Positions 17,895 to 55,903 of a stretch of 64,000 bases of DNA are shown here, in pieces. The DNA is from an uncultured Clostridia bacterium (GTDB taxonomy: Bacteria; Bacillota; Clostridia; TANB77; CAG-508): positions 272,788 through 336,787 of the forward strand of contig CAKOWY010000001.1 in NCBI GenBank assembly GCA_934129895.1. Direction: 5' to 3'. The position numbers and the translations under genes were made by a program. The notes under the pieces are model-generated. The model was not told the DNA's origin. It was given only the letters and a program-made list of their open reading frames with translations, and did no database searches. Each line of letters opens with the position of its first letter. Position 1 is the stretch's first letter.

Positions 17895-18539
17895 TTATTG
17901 TAATGCTTTTATTTCTTCTCTTAATTCTGCTATTCTCCCTTTTCTACTTTTTATTTGTTCACTTATCCTTTCTATTTCAACCATAAAACAAACTTCATCT
18001 TGTGAGCTTTCGTAAAATTCTGCGTTTTTTTCAAAGAATATGTCTATAACTCTTCCTATATTTAAATCTTTTAAACCGTTATCATATACTAATCCACGTA
18101 CATTAGAATATTCAACCAACTGATAAAAAAAACAATATTTAGGTCCTTTGCACCTCTTTTTTAAGTATTGTTTGTCACAACCTACATTTTTTTTACCATA
18201 ATCACATTTTATTTCTTCTATGTTTATATATAAATCTAATGGATTACATATACGTGAATTTTTTCGCAAAACTTCGTCAAGAGATAATCTCATACTTGTT
18301 ATTCCTTCTTGCATTCCACAAGGAGGAATTAATAAAAGTTCCTGTTTATTTTCTTCATCTGCCAATCTCCATTCTATACTGCCATTTGTTTCCGGACATT
18401 TTAATTCCAAATTTTTATGTTGCTTTAAAATTTCATATAAACTTATCCTTGGCTCAATTTTAGAACAAAACGGACATAGAAAACTAGATATATCAAATGC
18501 CCTTATGAATACTCTTTCTGAATTAAGAATATCATTCAT
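17895..18539 (-). CDS. hypothetical Cys-rich protein with C-terminal coiled coil (paralogue of the next gene)
   Basis: MNDILNSERVFIRAFDISSFLCPFCSKI... is followed by further Cys pairs and a C-terminal RIAELREEIKALQ segment. It has an AAAGAGGA RBS, and its ATG overlaps the upstream gene's stop by 8 nt. Confidence 0.6.
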   Translation of the reverse strand: MNDILNSERVFIRAFDISSFLCPFCSKIEPRISLYEILKQHKNLELKCPETNGSIEWRLADEENKQELLLIPPCGMQEGITSMRLSLDEVLRKNSRICNPLDLYINIEEIKCDYGKKNVGCDKQYLKKRCKGPKYCFFYQLVEYSNVRGLVYDNGLKDLNIGRVIDIFFEKNAEFYESSQDEVCFMVEIERISEQIKSRKGRIAELREEIKALQ

Positions 18540-19341
18540 TATCTGAATCCTCTTTCATAAATATGATATTTCTCTTACTCGAATATTTTTTCATAGGTTG
18601 TATTATTGGTTGTTCTGTAGGAACTTTATCTTTTTGACTTTGATTAGATACCTTCTTTCTTTTGGTCGAAGTTGATGACTTTTTACTTTTTGGGCTTTTA
18701 GCAACACTAGTTTTTTGAATCTCCTCTTTTTGAACTTGTTTAGACTCATCTACTTGTGAATTGATCTTTTCTTTTTCTTGAGCTTCCTTTTTTAATATTG
18801 CTAATTGACTCTCTAATTCTTGTTCTTCTATCTTTAATCTTTCTTCCTCTTTTCTTAATCTTTCAAGATAAAAAGTAGTTGAACATTGTTTATATTCTTC
18901 TGGATCAAATTCAAATGCCAATTGTATTGTTCTTGGTGATTTACAATACTTTCGATTTGCACAATTGTATTTATCACATTTTAAAGCTTTAGGAATAAGA
19001 TATACTCTTGGTTCATCTGGTGCTTCTTTGATATCATATCCAGATTGATATACTGATAAACAACAATTTTTAAAGCAAATTTTTGCATAAATACATGGCA
19101 AAAATAAGCCTGCTCCTTCTGAATAAGCTAATTTTATTACTAGATAAACTCCAGCTTCATACTCCTCCTCTGAAATTTCATCACAACTCAAATAAATTTT
19201 AAATTCATTGTAACGATCTGAAATATAACGTGAACTGTACTGCCCTTCAATTGAACTTATTCTTGAATTCCAATCATGCCATTTTCCACAGTAAGGACAT
19301 AAAAATCGCTTGATTTTGCAATTCAATAAACTTATATTCAT
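18532..19341 (-). CDS. hypothetical Cys-rich protein with coiled coil and Lys/Ser-rich tail (paralogue of the previous gene)
   Basis: It most likely starts at the ATG at 19339-19341 (MNISLLNCKIKRFLCPYCGKW), which has a GGAGG RBS. The track start at 19407 is a TTG. It shares with its neighbour the MN..L....FLCP(Y/F)C(G/S)K N-terminus and the same domain order. Confidence 0.6.
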   Translation of the reverse strand: MNISLLNCKIKRFLCPYCGKWHDWNSRISSIEGQYSSRYISDRYNEFKIYLSCDEISEEEYEAGVYLVIKLAYSEGAGLFLPCIYAKICFKNCCLSVYQSGYDIKEAPDEPRVYLIPKALKCDKYNCANRKYCKSPRTIQLAFEFDPEEYKQCSTTFYLERLRKEEERLKIEEQELESQLAILKKEAQEKEKINSQVDESKQVQKEEIQKTSVAKSPKSKKSSTSTKRKKVSNQSQKDKVPTEQPIIQPMKKYSSKRNIIFMKEDSDNE

Positions 19342-19515
19342 TCTGCTTCCTCCATAACTAATATTTCTCATTTGTAAAGTATCATCTAAGCTACTTATCT
19401 CAGACAATTCTTACATTTTTTCAGCGCATGTTATATTACAATTTTGATATTTTGCAAATCTATTATGTTTATTCAAAAAATAAAGATAAGTTATAAAACT
19501 TTTGATTTTACTAAC

Positions 19516-20556
19516 TTATCTACTTTCATCTTTTTTTCCCATATTTTCTAATCTTTGTATCCAATGTTGATTTTCATCTTCCATCTGTATTCCAATTTTA
19601 AATGCTTCTTCTTCATCTCTAATTAAATCACTAGGATTATCTTTCTTTTTACTACAATTAAAACTATTATACATTTCTATAGCTAAACTTTTTAAATCTC
19701 CATATTGATTATTTTTATATTTTAAATGTTTTATATTTTCTCTTACATCTTCAAAAAGACATCTACTAGTATTTGTATGCTCTCTTTTGGTATATACTAA
19801 AAATTCAAATTCTGCTACACTAGATTTTTTAGATATTTTTAATCCTGTTTGATATATATGAAGAATGAAATTGGCTATACCTAAAAATTGTTGTATAGGT
19901 ATTATTTTTGAACTTGAATAAAATCTATATACATTTTTTTTATTTCTTCCATTAGCTTCTATTGTTCTAACAGCTATTATTGAAATATTCCTTCCTTTTT
20001 CTATAACTATTCCATCTTTACAAATATCCATAGGTCCTGATTTTCTTATCAAACTTGATACTTTGTTATTTGAAAATTCAAATTGCGTAACATATTTTTT
20101 TGATTCTAAAACAATATGCCCTATTTCATACCATAATCCATTACTAGAATAATCAAAAACGCTTTTTTTGCTATTTCCAAATGGAAGTGTTTGTATTGCT
20201 TTTTCAATTCTTTCTTCATTAACTTTCTTCCCAGATTCTTGAACTAACAGCATTTTTTCTAAATCTTCATCACTTAGTTTTTGTCCTAGAACTTTTTCTA
20301 AAATAGCACTATATATTTCAAGTTTTCTATTTAATACTTCATTCTTTTTAGCTAGTGCCCTAATTCTTGCTATTTCTAAATTTCTCTCATCAATTGATGC
20401 ATTTATTTCATTAATTTTTTGATTTATTTCTTGCTCCTTTTGTAGTGTTTCTTTTCTTACTTGTTCTTCCGCTTCTCTTCTCAACCTTTCAGAAATCGTC
20501 TCTTCACTTGACACTTGTTTAGAATCTACTTCAGGATAAATTGTTCTTTTTTTCAT
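19516..20556 (-). CDS. hypothetical protein (N-terminal coiled coil, unknown C-domain)
   Basis: An AAAGAGG RBS precedes the ATG. It lies 11 nt downstream of the previous gene's stop. I recognise no domain in it. Confidence 0.55.
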   Translation of the reverse strand: MKKRTIYPEVDSKQVSSEETISERLRREAEEQVRKETLQKEQEINQKINEINASIDERNLEIARIRALAKKNEVLNRKLEIYSAILEKVLGQKLSDEDLEKMLLVQESGKKVNEERIEKAIQTLPFGNSKKSVFDYSSNGLWYEIGHIVLESKKYVTQFEFSNNKVSSLIRKSGPMDICKDGIVIEKGRNISIIAVRTIEANGRNKKNVYRFYSSSKIIPIQQFLGIANFILHIYQTGLKISKKSSVAEFEFLVYTKREHTNTSRCLFEDVRENIKHLKYKNNQYGDLKSLAIEMYNSFNCSKKKDNPSDLIRDEEEAFKIGIQMEDENQHWIQRLENMGKKDESR

Positions 20557-20567
20557 TTTTTACCTCT

Positions 20568-21203
20568 TTATTCCAATTCCATATATTCTGATTCTTCTTC
20601 TTCAATAACTTCCATTAATTGCTCTGACCAAAATTCTAATTCTCCTATATAATAATTTAATATTTTCTCCATAAGCTGCACATTAATTGTATTATAATGT
20701 TTTTGAATTAATTGTTGTATTTGATTAGCTTTTTCTGTTGTTATCGGATATTTTGATAAAAAGTCTACATCATATTCATTTAAAATACGATTTCGTAATA
20801 AATTCACTCTTTCAAACATATCATAATAAATTCCACACTTGTTTCCACATTCTAAATAATACACTATAGTGTCTATAGTCCATCTATTTCTAAGTAATGC
20901 CACAATTGTTCTTTCAGAAGACATTTCATGAGTAAATTTTTTTAATTCTTCCAAAACTTCTGAATTTTTTTCACCATAAGCTTGACTTAATTTATTTTTT
21001 ATTTTTAATTTTGACTTTTTTTTGGCTATCTTCTTTCTATATTTAGCAATTTCTTTTATGAAATCTAAATATTCTCTTGTTTGCTCTTGATCAATATGTT
21101 TTGAAATTGTGTCAACAACTCCTTTTATAATTGCATCATTTTCTGCTAAGATTTTTTCCTCATTTTCAATCTTTTCTTGACTTTCTTTTGATATGCGCTT
21201 CAT
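20568..21203 (-). CDS. hypothetical protein
   Basis: The ORF has a charged N-terminus. The ATG at 21201-21203 has a GAGGGG RBS, so the track start at 21218 is probably over-extended. Confidence 0.5.
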   Translation of the reverse strand: MKRISKESQEKIENEEKILAENDAIIKGVVDTISKHIDQEQTREYLDFIKEIAKYRKKIAKKKSKLKIKNKLSQAYGEKNSEVLEELKKFTHEMSSERTIVALLRNRWTIDTIVYYLECGNKCGIYYDMFERVNLLRNRILNEYDVDFLSKYPITTEKANQIQQLIQKHYNTINVQLMEKILNYYIGELEFWSEQLMEVIEEEESEYMELE

Positions 21204-21332
21204 TTTTGCCCCTCTCATATTTTTAACATAATATCTCTCCAGTTATTTAATTCTTCGTTTATGATTCTATATACATTTATTATTTGAATATTTATATTCT
21301 TATTCATTACAATTTCTGTATTTGTGACTTTT

Positions 21333-21518
21333 TTATTTTGATATGCATATTTTAACATTCCGCTTTGCTCTTAATTCATTTTGAATTTGTTTTATTTCTT
21401 GAAAATCTTCTTTTGTCATTTGTAATATTTCTTTATTAGACATATATTGTGATAATATTTCTATTTTTTCTATATAACCTAAAATTTTTTTATAATTGTT
21501 TATATTTTCTTTTTCCAT
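21333..21518 (-). CDS. small hypothetical protein (61 aa)
   Basis: It is a short ORF with a weak RBS, co-oriented at the head of the hypothetical-protein array. Confidence 0.3.
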   Translation of the reverse strand: MEKENINNYKKILGYIEKIEILSQYMSNKEILQMTKEDFQEIKQIQNELRAKRNVKICISK

Positions 21519-21609
21519 TATTAAAATCTCTTTCCATAATTTTTTATTTTAGGCTTAATTGCCAGCTCAAAAGTAACATAATTATATAACAATAATATAA
21601 AATTGTCAA

Positions 21610-21653
21610 TAAAAAAGCTAAGAGCTACCACAAATCTGTGATAGCTCTTGCTT
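21610..21653 (-). terminator. Rho-independent terminator closing the island operon
   Basis: Imperfect 16-bp stem AAGCTAAGAGCTACCACA / TGTGATAGCTCTTGCTT with an AATC loop. It begins 1 nt after the TAA stop at 21655-21657 and is followed on the minus strand by TTTTTTATT. Confidence 0.6.
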
Positions 21654-21654
21654 T

Positions 21655-22614
21655 TTAGTCTAACGTATCTGCCTGTACGATATTAGCAGGTGTAAAATAT
21701 CTTGCAAATAAATTTCCACCTACTTCATATCCACCCATAGTTGCGTTTATTGCATTAAATTGTAACTCTCTCGAAGCCAGAGATTCAATGATAAAAATTA
21801 CATTTTCAGAAATTAACTTCATTATCATCTCCAATGTCTGAATTGTAAGGGGATTTGTACTAGTACAAATAACAAATACAAACTTAGTATTTGCACTGTA
21901 AAATCTTTGCATTTTTCCAATGATTTTTTTGAATGTTTCGTTCCTTTGACTTCGCATAGATATTGTATAGAGTCTTTTAAGTCCACTCTCCCAATAATTC
22001 ATATATTCATCACTGGGATCACTATAAAGCTCTTGAAGATATGTTAAAATCTCCCTTGCCTCATATTCTATATAACTATCTCTATAATATCCTACATGAT
22101 ATCTATCATCTTTTTCTATCTCATTCATTATAGTTGCTGCAATAAGATTATAGATATCATGTCCAGTGTTTGCAATGTCAACTCGATTGAATAAGACAAC
22201 ATCCTGATTTCTAATATCATATAAGGTTCTATCTACCAGGATATCGGCATTCATTCCAAATACCCCAATCAAACCAGTATTACATTTAGGTCTGTTTATG
22301 AGTGGCTGTACTTTAGCTGTAAGCTGATTTGATCTTCTTGCCGTTCTATCAGAACTTTCTACAGCTCTTGATGCAGTCATGGGAACTACTTCAGAATTTT
22401 CCCTTTGATTTCTGAAATCTTCTGATGATTGTTCATTTCTCCTCTCTTCTCTAGTTGCATAATTACTATTTTCCTGATAACTTTGATAAGATTCAGCATA
22501 ACTGTCTTGTCTTCTTGCTTCGTTTCTTATCTCAGTTTCTTCCTTTTTTGGACTATTTTGAGCAGTAATTTTCTGCCCAGTTTGTTCAAAATATATTTGG
22601 CGCCGTCTTGCCAT
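21655..22614 (-). CDS. hypothetical protein, last gene of island operon (about 100-aa polar disordered N-terminus + uncharacterised C-domain)
   Basis: Its ATG overlaps the upstream TAA (TAATG), and an AAAGGAG RBS is present. The N-terminus is rich in Q/E/R/S/N (QNSPKKEETEIRNEARRQDSYAESYQSYQENSNY...). The C-domain (GLIGVFGMNADILV...KFVFVICTSTNPL) is unassigned. Confidence 0.7.
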   Translation of the reverse strand: MARRRQIYFEQTGQKITAQNSPKKEETEIRNEARRQDSYAESYQSYQENSNYATREERRNEQSSEDFRNQRENSEVVPMTASRAVESSDRTARRSNQLTAKVQPLINRPKCNTGLIGVFGMNADILVDRTLYDIRNQDVVLFNRVDIANTGHDIYNLIAATIMNEIEKDDRYHVGYYRDSYIEYEAREILTYLQELYSDPSDEYMNYWESGLKRLYTISMRSQRNETFKKIIGKMQRFYSANTKFVFVICTSTNPLTIQTLEMIMKLISENVIFIIESLASRELQFNAINATMGGYEVGGNLFARYFTPANIVQADTLD

Positions 22615-24020
22615 TATTTTCTCCTTTCACATTGTGATAAGGAATTTTTCTCCAATAACAAACTCTTTGCCCTGTTTTTCACAGGATCTTTAAATTCGCC
22701 TCTTTCTATTATCTCATAAAACCATCTTTTTGCATCAGCCGTGTAAACATCCAGTACTTTTTTGGCTCTTTCTTGCTCGAATTGACTTCTTGCATTAGTA
22801 ATAACCAATATAACTTTTTCAAATTCTTTAACATACTGGAGTTTTTCTGCAGTATCTGTTCCTGCAATAAAAGCATGTTTTTGACGATAGCTTGCTTTTA
22901 TAATATTTTTAGGAAATTGCATTAAGGCATGACATGCCAAAAAATATTCTCCTAAAATACTTCCTTCAGTCATTTCTCTTTCAGGAGCAGGATAACATGT
23001 TGCAGAAAATATTTGTTCAATTGTCCTCATTCTCCTTTGCTTTACAGTTGCCTCAATCTGATTTGGAAGTTCTGCTGCTTTAGTTCCCTCTACAGGTTCA
23101 TAACTTGCAACTCCAATATCACTGAAATATCCTTTTTCGAGATATTGAACCAAACCTCTAAATTCAGATTCCGTTTCTCCAGGATATCCAACAATTACTT
23201 CTGTTGAAATAATCAAATCAGGACGCAGTCTTTTTAAAGCATTTATCTTTTTATCCACATCTTCAAATAGTGGACGATTCATGCTTTTTAAGATACTTGG
23301 TGAACTATGCTGTATATGCAACATAATTTCAACAATGTTTGCGTTTTGTCCAATGAGTTCAATCACTTCATCAGTTAAACCTGCCGGATGAAACCAACCA
23401 ATAACATATCTGCAATCAGGATAGCCTTTTACAATTCTTGTCATCAGTTCAGCAAATTTTCTTTTTCCATACAAATCAACACCATAATCAGATGTTTCTT
23501 GTGCACCTGTAATATAAATAGTCGATTCGCTTGGATACATATTGCTAACTTCTTGCAAAATGTCTTGCATGCTTTTACTATGATATTCACCATAAAATTG
23601 AGGATAAACACAATAAGAGCATCTATGATTACAACCAGTCGAAATAATAACTTTGTTTTGTGGAATCCATTGAACATTAATATTGGGTTTATTGAACTTT
23701 GCAAGTACTTCTTCAAAAGATTTTACCTTAATTGGTGCTTCTTCTTTTAACTCTTTCAGTTCTTCTTTGCAAAGTCTTTCCAAACACCCTGTAACGATAA
23801 CTTCAGCATCTTTTTTCTTATTAATGCAAACATCTGCAATAACCTGCATAGAATACAGCTTATTAGGACCAAAAGCACAGGTAAGAATGATTATACAATC
23901 AGCAATCGTATAATCATTTACTACTTCATACCCAACAGTACTTTTAACCCGATTTACCAGTTGATTTGCATTATCAATGTCCATGTGCATGTCATTACAG
24001 AGAATTACCGCAACTTTCAT
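22614..24020 (-). CDS. radical SAM methylthiotransferase-like enzyme (MiaB/RimO/MtaB-type architecture)
   Basis: The N-terminal MTTase-type domain has three Cys (ILCND, ILTCAF, VTGCLERLC). The radical-SAM CxxxCxxC motif is CNHRCSYC. A C-terminal extension of more than 100 aa follows. The ATG overlaps the upstream TAA, and a GGAGG RBS is present. Confidence 0.8.
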   Translation of the reverse strand: MKVAVILCNDMHMDIDNANQLVNRVKSTVGYEVVNDYTIADCIIILTCAFGPNKLYSMQVIADVCINKKKDAEVIVTGCLERLCKEELKELKEEAPIKVKSFEEVLAKFNKPNINVQWIPQNKVIISTGCNHRCSYCVYPQFYGEYHSKSMQDILQEVSNMYPSESTIYITGAQETSDYGVDLYGKRKFAELMTRIVKGYPDCRYVIGWFHPAGLTDEVIELIGQNANIVEIMLHIQHSSPSILKSMNRPLFEDVDKKINALKRLRPDLIISTEVIVGYPGETESEFRGLVQYLEKGYFSDIGVASYEPVEGTKAAELPNQIEATVKQRRMRTIEQIFSATCYPAPEREMTEGSILGEYFLACHALMQFPKNIIKASYRQKHAFIAGTDTAEKLQYVKEFEKVILVITNARSQFEQERAKKVLDVYTADAKRWFYEIIERGEFKDPVKNRAKSLLLEKNSLSQCERRK

Positions 24021-24604
24021 TAATATCCTCCTTCACGCACTTTCGTACGAGAATCTGTAGTTTTGGATTTTGTTTTGGTTTCCTGCTGATATTCTTTGGT
24101 GAACTCTCGATTTGCAACTTTACCAAGTGCATTTTCAAGTGCAAGATATTTTTCACATTTCTTGCCTTTGAGCCCTTTGGGTTCAAACTTTACTTCACCA
24201 TCTTCAGATACAGATACCATCATAAATCCACCACTAGAATCCTGGGGATCTCTAACCTTGTAGCTACCTCCTTCTTGTTTGCTCACACTCAAATGCATCT
24301 TTTTGGCAGTCTTTTTCATCATCTCAATCGCATAATTGCTCATGATTATCGAACCATTATAGCCAATATATCTGGTAACATGACCGTCCCAAAAATCAGC
24401 CGTAATGTTATAATTGCCTGTCATGCTCTTTTCAAGTGCACAATCATATATTCCTGGAAGTTTTACTACATTCTCCTTTAACTGTGCACCTCCATAAAAC
24501 CGACACATTCCTTCGTCAACCATGTTAAGTCCCATGTTCGCCAAAGCTGATCTTGCACACTCCAAATCTCGGATCTCGGTATAAATAGTTGTAAAATGAC
24601 TCAT
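24020..24604 (-). CDS. Ycf35/DUF1257-like protein with Lys/Thr/Glu-rich C-terminal tail
   Basis: The N-terminus MSHFTTIYTEIRDLECARSALANMGLNM matches, from recollection, the MSHF..I.T.I.D...L..AL.DLG start of plastid/cyanobacterial Ycf35 (DUF1257). A TAATG overlap and GGAGG RBS are present. Confidence 0.65.
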   Translation of the reverse strand: MSHFTTIYTEIRDLECARSALANMGLNMVDEGMCRFYGGAQLKENVVKLPGIYDCALEKSMTGNYNITADFWDGHVTRYIGYNGSIIMSNYAIEMMKKTAKKMHLSVSKQEGGSYKVRDPQDSSGGFMMVSVSEDGEVKFEPKGLKGKKCEKYLALENALGKVANREFTKEYQQETKTKSKTTDSRTKVREGGY

Positions 24605-26244
24605 TACTGATTTCCTCCTTCAAAATTGATTGTTCGACCAGTCTTTTTCTTTTTATTAGTAGTGCTTCCTTTGCTTTCTGCACTATCATCTGAATGAATA
24701 TTAGCCCAACGAATATTTTCTTTTTGTGCCCATTCTGTTAATGCTTCTACGGTTTCTTTCATGATTCCTTTAGATGCTGGTTGAAGTACTTCCATCTGAT
24801 TTAAAATATCGTTTGTATTCAATTCTCTTGCATTATCTGCAAAGGAATTAAACATTGCCGATATCACGGCTTCTTCGATTTCTGCACCTGTGAAACCATC
24901 AGATACCTCAGCCAATTTTTCAACATCAAAGCTTTGAGCATTACGCCCTTTCTTTTCAAGTTGAATACTTACAATTTCTTCTCTTTCTTTTAAATTAGGA
25001 AGACCGACAAAAAAGATTTCATCAAATCGTCCTTTTCTCAAAAGTTCAGGTGGAAGAGATGTAATATTATTGGCAGTTGCAATAACATAAACTGCAGATT
25101 CTTTTTCCTGCATCCATGTAAGAATACTTGCAAACATACGGGAAGATACTCCAGAATCGTTTCTACCACCTGCTCCAGCACCAGCTAAACCTTTTTCAAT
25201 CTCATCAATCCACAACACACAAGGTGACATGGCTTCTGCCGTCTGAAGGGCTTTTCTGGTATTGGCTTCTGTATCACCAACATAGCTTCCAAAAAGTTTT
25301 CCAAGATCACATTTAATGAGCGGAACACTCCAAGTATTTGCCAATGCTTTGGCTGCCAAGCTCTTTCCGCATCCAGGAATACCTACAAGCAATACTCCCT
25401 TAGGGTTAGGTAAACCATATTTTTTTGCCTTATCTGAATATGCCAGAATACGCTTCTGGGTATATTCCTTAAAGTTTTGCATTCCTCCCACTTTAGTAGA
25501 ATCATGATTGTTCCAAAACTCAAGCAAACCATCTTTACAAATTATTTGTGCCTTAACTTCCGAAACAATCTCTAAATCAAGAGCCCGCTTTTTTGAAAAA
25601 GACGTTGATATTGCATTTTCAGCCTGATTTAACGTCAATCCCAGTAAAATCTCTGCTGCCTTTTCTGTTATAGACGAAATCTTTTCAAGTTCACTTGCCT
25701 TCAAATTGTCCTTGAATCTTTCAACCATATCATTAATGAGCTCTACAAAATCTTCTTTTTTAGGGAGCTCTAAATCAATGGAAACTGTAGATTCTTCCCA
25801 ATCTTTAGGCACGTCAAATTGATTGCTAATAAAGATAAAACAACATCCAATTTCATTTGCTTTTTCAAATGCTTCTTTTGCTGCTCGCAAAACCAAAGGC
25901 TGATCAACAAAATGATGGAAATCAAGCATACATAAAATGTATTCTCCTTGCTCATCATTAAGTTTTAAGCCTTCAGTTAATGCTTCTTGAGGATCTGTGA
26001 CATCTGCGTTTTCTTCTACCAGGTAATAATCTTCCATGTCGATATAATTTTTGTCACCACGAATTTGGATTCTGGGATCAACAACCTCCATGATTCCCCT
26101 TGTACAAGACCAATAGTATACCCTTTTTTGATAATGCTGACCTGCTCTTAAACAATCTGCCAAGGCCCGGTTTTCTTCGGGTGTTTGCAGGATAACTGAT
26201 GAGTAACCTGCGCTGATACAACCAGAGATGGATAATTTACTCAT
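24604..26244 (-). CDS. Ycf46-family AAA+ ATPase
   Basis: It has Walker A (GIPGCGKS), Walker B (LWIDEIEK) and the Ycf46-like segments TWMQEKESAVYVIATANN and LLRKGRFDEIFFVGLP. The preferred start is the ATG at 26242-26244 (MSKLSISG), which has a GGAGG RBS. The track start at 26259 lacks an SD. Confidence 0.85.
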   Translation of the reverse strand: MSKLSISGCISAGYSSVILQTPEENRALADCLRAGQHYQKRVYYWSCTRGIMEVVDPRIQIRGDKNYIDMEDYYLVEENADVTDPQEALTEGLKLNDEQGEYILCMLDFHHFVDQPLVLRAAKEAFEKANEIGCCFIFISNQFDVPKDWEESTVSIDLELPKKEDFVELINDMVERFKDNLKASELEKISSITEKAAEILLGLTLNQAENAISTSFSKKRALDLEIVSEVKAQIICKDGLLEFWNNHDSTKVGGMQNFKEYTQKRILAYSDKAKKYGLPNPKGVLLVGIPGCGKSLAAKALANTWSVPLIKCDLGKLFGSYVGDTEANTRKALQTAEAMSPCVLWIDEIEKGLAGAGAGGRNDSGVSSRMFASILTWMQEKESAVYVIATANNITSLPPELLRKGRFDEIFFVGLPNLKEREEIVSIQLEKKGRNAQSFDVEKLAEVSDGFTGAEIEEAVISAMFNSFADNARELNTNDILNQMEVLQPASKGIMKETVEALTEWAQKENIRWANIHSDDSAESKGSTTNKKKKTGRTINFEGGNQ

Positions 26245-26333
26245 AGAATTTTCCTCCATTTTTTATTGTTTGTTATTGAAAAAACTTTGGCTACAAAATA
26301 GTTTTTTTATAACCAATAAATTTTTTCCGTGTA

Positions 26334-26362
26334 ATTATATCACATCCCTTAATTTATGTCAA
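26334..26362 (-). promoter_or_regulatory. consensus sigma-A promoter of the four-gene island operon
   Basis: On the minus strand it reads TTGACA (26357-26362) - 17 nt - TGATATAAT, with the -10 at 26334-26339. It is an extended -10 and lies about 85 nt upstream of the ATPase start. Confidence 0.5.
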
Positions 26363-26457: not shown

Positions 26458-27180
26458 TTAAAATCTTATCGGACCATCTCCAGAATCAACAATGATTATA
26501 AAATCAGTAATCTTATGTTCTACAAACCATCTTAAAATCTCTCGACTTTGCTCATCCACCTTATAATATCCTAATGCACAAAAAACTTTTGTGTCATATT
26601 GTAAAAAGGCCTTTTTCAGTGATTGTATTGCTTCTTCTATATTTTTAGCTTCTTCTCCTATTACTCTCCTTTGATATCTTTCTTTATAACTCATAGGGTA
26701 TTGATAATGAAAACCTAGATTTTGTGCACAATATTGCAAATTATACCTTTGTTCAACGATTTCGATATACCTTAAACGTGAATATGCTGTATCTTCGCAC
26801 CTACTATACACTGATACTAAGCTTTCTGCAATACGCCAAAAGATATTGGAAAAAGATTCCATAGAGATAAAACCCAAGAATACTGTTTGCAAAGAAAAAA
26901 TAGAATTCGATATTCTGGCTGTACTATCTCTAAATTTTTTTATTTCAGAATAAGCATTTTCTCCGTAAACATTTATTATATTCGTCTTAGGATTCTCTTC
27001 TCTAAATAATTGTGTTGCCACTTTTTCGAACCCGCGATCTCTTACTAATTGAATCCCCTCGTTTCTTTGAACTTTAGAGTTTTCTTCATTTGGTTCTTCT
27101 TCACTTTTTAAAAATACAAATTCGCTATCTTTGCGTACCAAGATTTCTCCATTGTTTTCTGCATAAATTTTCCGTCTCAT
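26458..27180 (-). CDS. hypothetical protein (first gene of island, own promoter and terminator)
   Basis: The ATG at 27178-27180 (MRRKIYAENNGE) has a GGAGG RBS, whereas the track start at 27201 is a TTG. I recognise no domain; the C-terminus ends ...ITDFIIIVDSGDGPIRF. Confidence 0.65.
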   Translation of the reverse strand: MRRKIYAENNGEILVRKDSEFVFLKSEEEPNEENSKVQRNEGIQLVRDRGFEKVATQLFREENPKTNIINVYGENAYSEIKKFRDSTARISNSIFSLQTVFLGFISMESFSNIFWRIAESLVSVYSRCEDTAYSRLRYIEIVEQRYNLQYCAQNLGFHYQYPMSYKERYQRRVIGEEAKNIEEAIQSLKKAFLQYDTKVFCALGYYKVDEQSREILRWFVEHKITDFIIIVDSGDGPIRF

Positions 27181-27263: not shown

Positions 27264-27292
27264 ATTATATCATTTTTGCAATTTTATGTCAA
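27264..27292 (-). promoter_or_regulatory. consensus sigma-A promoter of the 240-aa island gene (near-duplicate of 26334-26362)
   Basis: It reads TTGACA (27287-27292) - 17 nt - TGATATAAT, with the -10 at 27264-27269. The surrounding sequence cgtgtattatatcat...ttatgtcaatt closely matches the operon promoter. Confidence 0.45.
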
Positions 27293-55000: not shown

Positions 55001-55903
55001 TTATTGCAATTTAAATTTTTTTACAATTGCAGTATCATCTTGCCAGTCTTTTTTTACTTTTACCCATGTTTTTAAATTTACTTTTATGCCAAAATTGTTT
55101 TCCATATCAATTCTTGCCGCTTGTCCTATTCTTTTTAACATACTTCCATCTTTTCCAATTATTATTCCTTTATGTGATTCTCTTAAACAATAAATTGTTG
55201 CTTCTATATCATAAAATTCTTCCTTTTTTTGAGTTTTCTTTAATTTCATTTTTTCAACTTCAACATAAATTCCATGTGGTACTTCGTCTTGCAAAAATTT
55301 TAATGCTTTTTCTCTGATTGTTTCTTCTGCAAGTTGTCTCATTGTTTGATCTGTATATTCTTCTGTATCATAATATGCTGGTCCTGGCTTTAAGTTTTTT
55401 TCAATCTCATCTAATATAATATCTCTATATTTGTTTTTTACTGATGATACTGGAATTACAGCTTCAAAATTATATTGTTTTTGATATAAATCAATTAATT
55501 TTAATAAATTTTCTTTTTTTACTAAATCTATTTTGTTTATTATAAGTATTGCCTTTTTATTTGATTCTTTTATTTTTTCTAGGATTCTCATATCTCCTCT
55601 GCCTATTTCTTCACTTGTAGCTTCTATAACAAATAAAATTAAGTCAATTTCACTTATAATTCCAAAAGATGTTTCTATCATGGTTTCATTTAATTTAGTC
55701 TTTGGTTTATGAATTCCAGGAGTATCTATAAATACTATTTGAGAATTTTCTCTATTTACAATTCCTCTTATTGCTGTTCTTGTTGTTTGTACTTTATTTG
55801 CTGTTGCAGCAATTTTTTCTCCTACAAGTAAATTGACTAATGTAGATTTTCCTACATTAGTTCTTCCTAGTATTGCCACAAATCCTGATTTAAATTCTGC
55901 CAT
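55001..55903 (-). CDS. era: GTPase Era
   Basis: The G1 motif GRTNVGKSTL and the G3 motif DTPGIH are present, with a C-terminal KH domain. Confidence 0.9.
   Translation of the reverse strand: MAEFKSGFVAILGRTNVGKSTLVNLLVGEKIAATANKVQTTRTAIRGIVNRENSQIVFIDTPGIHKPKTKLNETMIETSFGIISEIDLILFVIEATSEEIGRGDMRILEKIKESNKKAILIINKIDLVKKENLLKLIDLYQKQYNFEAVIPVSSVKNKYRDIILDEIEKNLKPGPAYYDTEEYTDQTMRQLAEETIREKALKFLQDEVPHGIYVEVEKMKLKKTQKKEEFYDIEATIYCLRESHKGIIIGKDGSMLKRIGQAARIDMENNFGIKVNLKTWVKVKKDWQDDTAIVKKFKLQ

Follow-up and report, generated by a model that had tools for sequence, protein, structure and literature searches.

Ycf46, Ycf35 and DUF2997 proteins are encoded by conserved 'hypothetical' genes of cyanobacteria and algal plastids, and after two decades they are known only as parts of a stress-induced operon. 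In cyanobacteria this operon comprises slr0373, slr0374 (ycf46) and slr0376 and its function is unknown (PMC7496141); a DUF2997-ycf35-fed7 gene cluster, also reported from cyanobacteria, provides a link to iron-sulfur proteins (PMC4284462). Literature searches on DUF1257, DUF2997 and Ycf46/Ycf35 turned up expression data and lists of plastid genes but no functional study. Here we analysed a four-gene operon from an uncultured Clostridia bacterium (GenBank assembly GCA_934129895.1, contig CAKOWY010000001.1, positions 272,788 to 336,787 of the forward strand; this stretch of 64,000 nucleotides is called the window below). By sequence comparison, the operon is a Clostridial and so far uncharacterised variant of the widespread Ycf46-like ATPase/DUF1257/DUF2997 module, to which a radical S-adenosylmethionine (radical-SAM) methylthiotransferase-like enzyme is joined and which bears a candidate docking tag. 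This tag, a short terminal peptide motif R-x-I-x-F shared by the ATPase and its neighbours, is the most informative finding and was absent from the first-pass annotation of the window.

The arrangement in the window resembles the set found in cyanobacteria and red-lineage plastids in that a gene for an AAA ATPase adjoins DUF1257 and DUF2997; the likeness to Ycf46 rests on plasmid ATPases that adjoin DUF1257 and DUF2997, not on slr0374 itself. It differs in that DUF1257 and DUF2997 are fused, a RimO-like radical-SAM enzyme is inserted and variable tagged accessory genes follow, and in that the host is a non-photosynthetic gut anaerobe. All annotated genes in the stretch shown lie on the minus strand. 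The operon contains, in window coordinates:

24604 to 26244, minus strand: AAA+ ATPase, 546 amino acids (PF00004 at 1.4e-32, plus AAA_lid_3)
24020 to 24604, minus strand: fusion of DUF1257 (Ycf35-like) and DUF2997, 194 amino acids (Pfam, hhalign and AlphaFold2)
22614 to 24020, minus strand: radical-SAM methylthiotransferase-like enzyme, 468 amino acids, with UPF0004, the radical-SAM core and a family-specific C-terminus of about 130 amino acids (Pfam)
21655 to 22614, minus strand: p319, 319 amino acids, with an N-terminal tag, a disordered linker of about 85 residues and a degenerate AAA+/STAND-like domain of P-loop fold (about residues 90 to 319)
26334 to 26362, minus strand: predicted operon promoter in the intergenic gap 5' of the ATPase gene, TTGACA, 17 nucleotides, TATAAT, with TG extension, matching the sigma-70 consensus at 12 of 12 positions
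21620 to 21649, minus strand: intrinsic terminator, a 13-bp stem followed by a T run, six bases past the p319 stop codon

Because the promoter (26362-26334) precedes and the terminator (21649-21620) follows the four genes, these are predicted to form one discrete operon. Promoters were called by a consensus scan alone.

The ATPase consists of an N-terminal region of about 250 residues followed by a single classical AAA domain with its lid (AAA_lid_3: 30.9 bits against a Pfam cut-off of 27.2). Its closest solved relatives are the D2 domain of p97/Cdc48 (E 2e-57) and then NSF, Afg2 and Rix7. Walker A (GIPGCGKS) and Walker B (VLWIDE) are present, both motifs being found in 28 of 28 relatives, and the arginine-finger region R-x-G-R-F-D is kept in 27 of the 28. 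At the site of pore loop 1 the window protein reads S-Y-V-G, the pattern in the relatives being G-S-[Y/L/I]-V-G-D-T-E. From its sequence we class the protein as an AAA+ ATPase of the classical-clade Cdc48/FtsH type and a putative protein unfoldase. The N-terminal 250 residues had no relative in a sequence search of the PDB; the ATPase matches phrog_8638 over its full length (E 1.6e-126), so that this region is kept there too. The start codon had initially been placed at 26259. Translation probably begins 15 nucleotides downstream at the ATG at 26244: the upstream ATG sits within aATGGAGGaaaattctATG, which gives the GGAGG serving the ATG at 26244, and an independent gene call in another assembly of the same organism also gives an ATPase of 546 amino acids.

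The second protein had been labelled DUF1257, which describes it in part. It appears to be a fusion in which DUF2997 (PF11211) is found at residues 130-173 with 41.1 bits against a cut-off of 24.1, while DUF1257 (PF06868) itself reaches 18.5 bits and stays under its cut-off of 22.2. The homologues P0144 and those from loci L009 and L041 (related loci are cited by such numbers) do match DUF1257 in Pfam, and an hhalign comparison with the DUF1257 protein of phage SM1 gave 93% probability. SM1_027 proved not to be a fusion of this kind. The AlphaFold2 model of the 194-residue protein has a predicted local distance difference test score (pLDDT) of 83 and a predicted template-modelling score of 0.77. 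A fold search with this model returned nothing significant from the PDB (best match RnlA with E 8e-3 and a template-modelling score of 0.25, plus weak TBP-like matches) and only unnamed phage proteins from BFVD; a sequence search of the PDB with the family profile found nothing. The N-terminal MSHFT is invariant among 23 homologues of the fusion protein. An M-S-H start (MSHFT, MSHVT or MSHIS; 24590-24604 in the window, compared with L041, L045, L049 and L052) is conserved across Clostridia, cyanobacteria, Nitrospirota and three of four Bacilli loci examined, the P. polymyxa protein beginning with MSFVG instead. Removal of the methionine would expose Ser-His, which might constitute a functional N-terminus that binds metal or acts as an N-terminal nucleophile.

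The radical-SAM enzyme shares with RimO, MiaB and MtaB an N-terminal UPF0004 domain with three conserved cysteines and a CxxxCxxC core. Its best relative in the PDB is RimO of T. maritima (4JC0, E 1.4e-39, residues 28-333), MiaB being matched with E 4e-22. Across 36 relatives the core cysteines C130, C134 and C137 are invariant, and C8, C48 and C79, the UPF0004 cysteines of the auxiliary cluster, are conserved in at least 90%. It differs from these enzymes by its family-specific C-terminus of about 130 residues and by being encoded always after the genes for an AAA ATPase and a DUF1257/DUF2997 protein. There is also no TRAM domain: Pfam gave no match to one, and the alignment with RimO stops at residue 333. 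The protein is therefore best described, at the level of its sequence, as a RimO-like enzyme that has lost the TRAM substrate-binding domain. Against NCBIfam models it scores 209 bits for RimO (cut-off 357) and 205 bits for the MiaB/RimO subfamily TIGR00089 (cut-off 251), both below threshold. Its C-terminal 134 residues have no relative in the PDB, and a search of 2.9 million viral contigs returned no member of the family. As an observation apart, the C-terminal region of the family carries a basic/hydrophobic element [KR]A[KR]xLLL (RAKSLLLEK in the window, 22614-22700; RFRRILL at the very end of the L027 protein), and the enzymes of L032-L034 are shorter, about 370 residues, and do not have this element.

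In p319, the AlphaFold2 model shows an α/β domain at residues 90-319 with pLDDT above 90, while residues 13-89 stay below 50. Pfam gave no match. Foldseek against the PDB returned RdrA of the RADAR system first (E 1.6e-5, probability 1.0), followed by ORC2, MalT and NLRs. At the place of Walker A, a position inferred from the fold and not from a residue alignment, p319 reads GVFGMNAD and the family consensus GVFGxNSD, both without lysine; a functional Walker A of the form GK[ST] was not found in p319. The model suggests that p319 is probably an inactive AAA+/STAND-like protein. Only 30 relatives were found at E ≤ 1e-3 among 1.84 billion representatives, with a mean column identity of 26%, and the family profile had no similarity to the ATPase or to the 319-residue protein of phage SM1.

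The window derives from a contig of 539 kb in a Hadza gut metagenome. A pattern scan of 185,579 species genomes retrieved 28 loci, each from a species-level genome, with the radical-SAM family. All belong to uncultured gut or rumen Clostridia, among them Clostridium sp. CAG:245; as the peptide patterns of the scan were strict, 28 is a minimum. The order ATPase-DUF-radical-SAM is kept in 26 of 27 other distinct loci, with radical-SAM identities of 44-63%. Between the ATPase and DUF genes the spacing over 27 distinct loci is -1 in 11, -4 in seven and 0 to +3 in five; between the DUF and radical-SAM genes it is -1 to +6 in 18, with one or two inserted genes in seven others. The distance from the radical-SAM gene to the next one varies from -20 to +268 nucleotides, and in the closest other species (L002) the junction with p319 is a 12-nucleotide gap. 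Genes of the p319 family occur in zero to four copies per locus, before or after the core. Since this junction as well as the copy number and place of p319 vary, the conserved core comprises three genes, and p319 belongs to a variable accessory set. Other variable neighbour families are p61, p216, p346, p291, p214, c7, c12, c16, BspA-type LRR_5 and WG-repeat proteins.

Beyond the Clostridia, ATPases accompanied by DUF1257 and/or DUF2997 were found in an IMG/VR contig (a DUF fusion with a 4-nucleotide overlap and no radical-SAM gene), in Pseudomonas phage SM1 and on plasmids of six phyla, which include those of Paenibacillus, Bacillus, Geminocystis, Nostoc, Ca. Manganitrophus and Thermovibrio. 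The window ATPase is 32% identical to the Paenibacillus protein over 542 residues (E 1e-92) and 35.5% identical over 94% of the query to the Geminocystis plasmid protein, which adjoins DUF1257 and DUF2997. In a Streptococcus satellite phage, a more distant ATPase homologue stands without any recognisable neighbour of the DUF1257 or DUF2997 type. Of 11 plasmid loci examined, five encode a small radical-SAM protein of the Fer4_12 type within 4 kb of the ATPase, namely those of P. polymyxa, P. urinalis, B. cereus, B. halotolerans and Treponema succinifaciens. Its gene in Paenibacillus polymyxa begins 6 nucleotides past DUF2997, the place held in the window by the RimO-like enzyme. That two unrelated radical-SAM families hold the same place argues for a functional, though not universal, link between the module and radical-SAM chemistry.

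The ATPase and p319 carry similar short peptides at opposite ends of their chains:

24622 to 24639, minus strand: ATPase tail motif G-R-T-I-N-F, in the disordered C-terminal tail ending in KKKKTGRTINFEGGNQ
22588 to 22605, minus strand: p319 N-terminal tag R-R-Q-I-Y-F (MARRRQIYFEQ...), found by a motif scan

The ATPase tail in the window reads TGRTINFEGGNQ up to the stop codon. From 25 distinct Clostridia ATPase tails a motif G-R-x-I-[RIY]-[FTR] was recovered, with the arginine in 22 and the isoleucine in 15 of them. The N-termini of the p319 family follow M(x)0-10 [RK]R-x-I-x-F (e.g. MARRRQIYF, MKIQRVIRF, MIRRKIIF), after which an acidic disordered linker begins, and 21 of the 30 proteins contain the strict form R-x-I-[RIHYQ]-[FRL] within their first 16 residues. 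Unrelated neighbours also start with the motif: MKKRNIHF in the p346 family (MKKRTIYP in the window), MPRQIIP in c12 and MRRKIYAEN in p240 of the window. It is further seen near the C-terminus of p291 (KRNIIF) and at the end of p240 (GPIRF). A twin-arginine (Tat) signal was considered for MARRRQIYF and ruled out, as a polar disordered linker follows and there is no hydrophobic h-region.

Motif statistics were obtained with a fixed regular expression and with a position-specific scoring matrix derived from the ATPase tails. Within the terminal 16 residues the expression R.I[RIHYQ][FRL] matched 30 of 226 cluster-adjacent proteins, compared with two of the 280 remaining proteins of these loci (Fisher p = 2e-9). 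The matrix from ATPase tails alone placed p319 N-termini above the 99th percentile of the controls (12 vs 3, p = 0.005). The likeness between ATPase tail and p319 tag was higher within a locus than between loci (8.55 vs 4.68 ± 1.45, p = 0.004, n = 14). An A/U-rich codon bias at N-termini could inflate the frequency of basic, Ile and Phe residues there; the same-genome controls gave 0 N-terminal matches. Within-locus matching of tail variants was also seen in distant taxa, namely L041, B. cereus, P. urinalis and Komagataeibacter, as listed here together with P. polymyxa (all tails run to the stop codon):

L041: ATPase tail SRVIRREVNR; neighbours end in IRVIRR and LRVIRRS
B. cereus: ATPase tail GRTIDF; neighbour GRMIDF
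P. polymyxa: ATPase tail YRRISH, a weaker motif; neighbours SRVIHF and KRVIRL
P. urinalis: ATPase tail TDLEFSQ; neighbour SDIEF
Komagataeibacter: ATPase tail RRAVLLG; neighbour SGRRILL

One peptide shared by the flexible tail of the ATPase and by alternative partners would imply a common receptor. As the motif can be N-terminal, C-terminal or a few residues off the end, its recognition would not need a free carboxylate. Docking or tethering peptides are familiar from other AAA+ systems, such as the C-terminal LRVVK with which SspB tethers itself to ClpX, and the HbYX and GQYL docking motifs that proteasomal ATPases have in common with other activators (GQYL in Mpa and Bpa/PafE). Like these, the motif is short, basic and hydrophobic, lies at the end of a flexible tail and is common to ATPase and partners; it differs in that there is no evident ClpP- or proteasome-like partner in the window and in that it is not confined to the C-terminus. 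In extracellular contractile injection systems the AAA ATPase Pvc15 picks its co-encoded payloads through disordered terminal signal peptides (PMC11495950). Pvc15 and Afp15 resemble the window protein as classical AAA ATPases in which a single active AAA domain is accompanied by an additional N-terminal region, a likeness taken from their description, Pvc15 itself having about 700 residues with N, D1 and D2 domains. The best plasmid homologue of the window ATPase, with 37.5% identity over 92% of the query, is encoded on the Treponema succinifaciens plasmid pTRESU01 (L043, 1603-8572). It stands between a small Fer4_12 radical-SAM gene and genes for GPD baseplate-hub, Phage_base_V and PAAR domains, in surroundings that resemble a contractile-injection cluster. 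No sheath, tube or baseplate genes occur near the window operon or in the 27 related loci.

In our leading reading, the operon encodes a tag-directed unfoldase hub that cooperates with a radical-SAM enzyme. We give this tentative reading slightly less than even odds. The core would be three co-translated proteins, an AAA+ unfoldase, a Ycf35-type DUF1257-DUF2997 adaptor and a TRAM-less RimO-like methylthiotransferase. The hub of ATPase and DUF protein would recognise the short linear motif R-x-I-x-F, borne on flexible tails of the ATPase itself and of variable accessory proteins (in the window p319, p240, p346 and p291), and the motif would tether the latter as adaptors or clients. The radical-SAM enzyme, devoid of its own substrate-binding domain, would act on whatever macromolecule the hub holds or unfolds, most likely a protein as in the case of RimO. 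The stop/start overlaps between the genes (see below) would be local operon packing that keeps the core proteins co-produced. If the peptide does serve as a docking tag, sequence could be used to predict clients throughout the family, and the TRAM-less methylthiotransferase might in turn lead to a novel modification of protein or RNA in abundant uncultured gut bacteria.

Several points weigh against this hub. The aromatic position of the pore loop is Tyr in only nine of 28 ATPase relatives and Leu or Ile in 18. The motif is short and was defined after the sequences had been inspected; outside the p319 family its enrichment is modest (9/196, p = 0.007), and the co-variation statistic ignores the relatedness of the loci, the other motif tests likewise being made without phylogeny. 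Methylthiolation is an assumed chemistry, because the enzyme scores below the NCBIfam cut-offs. Many ATPase/DUF modules, those of cyanobacteria, Nitrospirota and phage SM1 among them, lack a radical-SAM partner, and the small radical-SAM protein in phage-like plasmids could be an NrdG-type gene of nucleotide metabolism.

A broader version would extend the tag-directed remodelling hub, with its tagged and rapidly diversifying co-encoded proteins, to the whole Ycf46-like module, which is conserved in plastids, cyanobacteria, phages, plasmids and gut Clostridia alike, with radical-SAM enzymes as recurrent catalytic partners (the TRAM-less RimO-like enzyme here, small Fer4_12 proteins in Bacilli and Treponema) and perhaps an oligomer of DUF1257/DUF2997 as the receptor. 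Taken as a whole, we regard this as possible rather than probable. It would establish a new class of ATP-dependent systems, coupled to radical-SAM enzymes, for protein modification or conflict. The Clostridial variant adds two clues, a dedicated radical-SAM partner and a shared terminal peptide whose variants in the ATPase are matched by those in its neighbours, and the extended model, if true, would offer a first mechanistic handle on Ycf46 and Ycf35.

The strongest rival to the hub is a conflict or anti-phage system, in which the accessory proteins would be diversifying sensors tethered to the ATPase and the radical-SAM enzyme an effector acting on a host or phage macromolecule; we consider it unlikely, though far from negligible. 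Degenerate STAND/AAA+-like p319 paralogues, BspA-type LRR and WG-repeat proteins would be the sensors, and these accessory families are indeed fast-evolving and multi-copy, with up to four copies of p319 and up to five of LRR_5 per locus. The best fold match of p319 is RdrA of RADAR. The two share the fold of a P-loop NTPase domain, but p319 has 319 instead of about 800 residues, no Walker A lysine, no RdrB deaminase at its side and an identity of only 9-12%. Similarly, the AAA core of the ATPase resembles IetA, yet the PADLOC matches are partial (residues 273-513) and come without IetS. With RdrB missing as well, no complete PADLOC 2.0 system was matched, and PADLOC, NCBIfam and PHROGs gave no system-level identification for ten proteins. 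No nuclease, protease or NADase effector is present. Relatives of the module do occur on plasmids, phages and a phage satellite, where DNA methylases, TnpB, RloB, zeta toxin, Fic, JAB and WYL proteins and contractile-injection genes are neighbours. The Clostridia cluster is found at differing chromosomal positions, but between housekeeping genes and not in an obvious defence island. Its G+C content at third codon positions (GC3) is raised: the window values are 0.26 for the ATPase, 0.33 for the DUF protein, 0.21 for the radical-SAM enzyme and 0.22 for p319, against 0.11 for MreB and 0.09 for POR, and core GC3 exceeds that of the flanks in 16 of 16 related loci (L005-L037; mean 0.27 vs 0.16). 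The cluster is thus compositionally atypical in its host, an uncultured low-GC gut Clostridium, and the consistent difference between core and flanks suggests horizontal circulation or unusual codon selection. A role in conflict is further countered by the cyanobacteria and plastids, in which the module is a conserved stress-induced gene set (PMC7496141).

Alternatively, the radical-SAM enzyme may modify the motif itself, so that the R-x-I-x-F tails would be substrates for C-H functionalisation fed by the ATPase and not docking peptides. The motif lies on flexible tails, and two unrelated radical-SAM families share the operon position. Radical-SAM enzymes are also known to act on short extended peptides, for example the RVSGY loops recognised by PFL-activase, the S12 loop modified by RimO and the C-terminal tail that is the substrate of MftC. 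The motif is however equally present in modules without a nearby radical-SAM gene (L041, phage SM1, Komagataeibacter and Manganitrophus), which argues that its primary role is independent of the enzyme and makes this explanation improbable.

We give similarly little credence to a housekeeping function in translation, where a paralogue of RimO or MtaB would methylthiolate tRNA or a ribosomal protein, with the ATPase and DUF protein as an assembly chaperone and p319 as a mere neighbour. The closest characterised relatives of the enzyme are RimO, then MtaB and MiaB, the AAA+ relatives Rix7 and Afg2 act in ribosome biogenesis, and the flanking genes are housekeeping genes. Yet the enzyme lacks TRAM, the domain through which RimO, MtaB and MiaB bind their substrates, canonical methylthiotransferases with TRAM exist elsewhere in related genomes (L009, L013, L019), the radical-SAM family is narrow (at least 28 species-level genomes in one Clostridia group), and its GC3 is atypical for the host genome.

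The genes of the operon overlap at their stop and start codons, on which the first-pass annotation had been centred:

24602 to 24606, minus strand: junction 1, ATPase/DUF, TAATG, with the Shine-Dalgarno sequence GAAGGAGGA inside the ATPase gene, where it encodes E-G-G
24018 to 24022, minus strand: junction 2, DUF/radical-SAM, TAATG, with the Shine-Dalgarno sequence GAAGGAGGA
22612 to 22616, minus strand: junction 3, radical-SAM/p319, TAATG, with the Shine-Dalgarno sequence AAAGGAGA, predicted to be sequestered in a local hairpin

All three TAATG overlaps were confirmed on the minus strand (24606-24602, 24022-24018 and 22616-22612), each neighbouring pair of the four open reading frames having one base in common, and all four frames proved intact and free of internal stops. 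A GGAGG had been claimed for every junction; it is present at two of them (GAAGGAGGA), the radical-SAM/p319 junction having AAAGGAGA, i.e. AGGAG. In a simple gene model, TAATG one-base overlaps make up six of the 53 same-strand junctions of the window, those outside the cluster (at 55903, 36610 and 29589) lying between unrelated gene pairs, and none of the 53 is a four-base ATGA overlap. A run of three TAATG somewhere in the window has P of about 0.01 at the rate outside the cluster (3/50) and about 0.07 at the overall rate (6/53). The three consecutive overlaps are thus mildly unusual, not extraordinary, because TAATG is the usual overlap type of this genome with its 27% GC, and they are ordinary operon architecture and no special feature in themselves.

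From the overlaps, obligate translational coupling and roughly stoichiometric co-production of a four-protein complex had been proposed. 'Obligate' is not borne out: every downstream gene is preceded by its own Shine-Dalgarno sequence, and the messenger RNA at junctions 1 and 2 does not fold significantly more strongly than shuffled sequence (z +1.56 and -0.69), so that these two sites look accessible. At junction 3 the p319 site is predicted to lie in a hairpin (z -1.98; seven of 200 shuffles fold as well). According to these predictions translational coupling is plausible, most of all at junction 3. Co-production of the core proteins is likely, in line with a single operon and with first two junctions that are kept tight in the relatives. 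A fixed stoichiometry of four proteins does not agree with the spacing of -20 to +268 nucleotides behind the radical-SAM gene, nor with zero to four p319-family copies on either side of the core. A toxin/immunity-type module with overlaps that enforce stoichiometry, also suggested at first, has nothing but overlapping stop/start codons and strong Shine-Dalgarno sequences in its favour and is very improbable, given four large proteins of which two are enzymes, an overlap type common in the genome, a radical-SAM/p319 junction that is not conserved, and the absence from Pfam, NCBIfam, PADLOC and PHROGs results of toxin, antitoxin or immunity domains and of any toxin with a small cognate neutraliser.

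The Shine-Dalgarno sequences leave a trace in the proteins. The C-terminal E-G-G of the ATPase (ending FEGGNQ, 24613-24621) and of the DUF protein (ending REGGY, 24026-24034) is encoded by the GAAGGAGGA of the next gene, and the 'GG' tail that seems to be conserved in the two families is largely a footprint of the ribosome-binding site. For this reason the conserved C-terminal 'GGY' of the DUF protein was dropped as a candidate ubiquitin- or Pup-like tail.

Further genes lie on both sides of the operon:

26458 to 27180, minus strand: p240, accessory gene upstream, with its own predicted 12/12 promoter (27292-27264); the protein begins MRRKIYAEN and ends DGPIRF
17895 to 21518, minus strand: downstream accessory genes p61/orf47, p216, p346, p291 and p214, with their own predicted 12/12 promoter (21609-21581), identified by tblastn and clustering

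Subsets of p61, p216, p346, p291 and p214 are kept beside the core in other loci. For p240, which probably belongs to the system, tblastn found no homologue in the other loci. Three perfect 12/12 sigma-70 promoters, all intergenic, thus lie within 6 kb (27264-27292, 26334-26362 and 21581-21609), preceding p240, the four-gene operon and p61-p216-p346, respectively. The p61-family gene is split (21215-21518) into p61 (21518 to 21333) and a 47-residue open reading frame in another frame (21358 to 21215), which together correspond to a single protein of 103-108 residues in five related loci; L001 and L002 are split in the same way. A frameshifted pseudogene, two separate genes or recoding could account for this. 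The end of the 47-residue frame, WRDIMLKI, resembles the tail motif. The p291 and p214 proteins (17895-19341) look like paralogues with a zinc-ribbon-like motif FLCP[YF]C, and their genes overlap by 8 nucleotides (18539/18532). They are conserved only in L010 and L011. The p214 gene is probably disrupted in L001, a different assembly of the window's species, where it aligns as three pieces shifted against each other.

In three loci from rumen metagenome-assembled genomes (L027, L028 and L031), one or two BspA-type LRR_5 genes stand between the DUF and radical-SAM genes and more follow the latter, giving up to five paralogues. Representative LRR_5 members that were inspected end in a conserved tail with F[SC]G[VT]IRxN[LI]IAxK[KR]. 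One of these genomes, RUG770, carries two copies of the whole module (L028 and L031).

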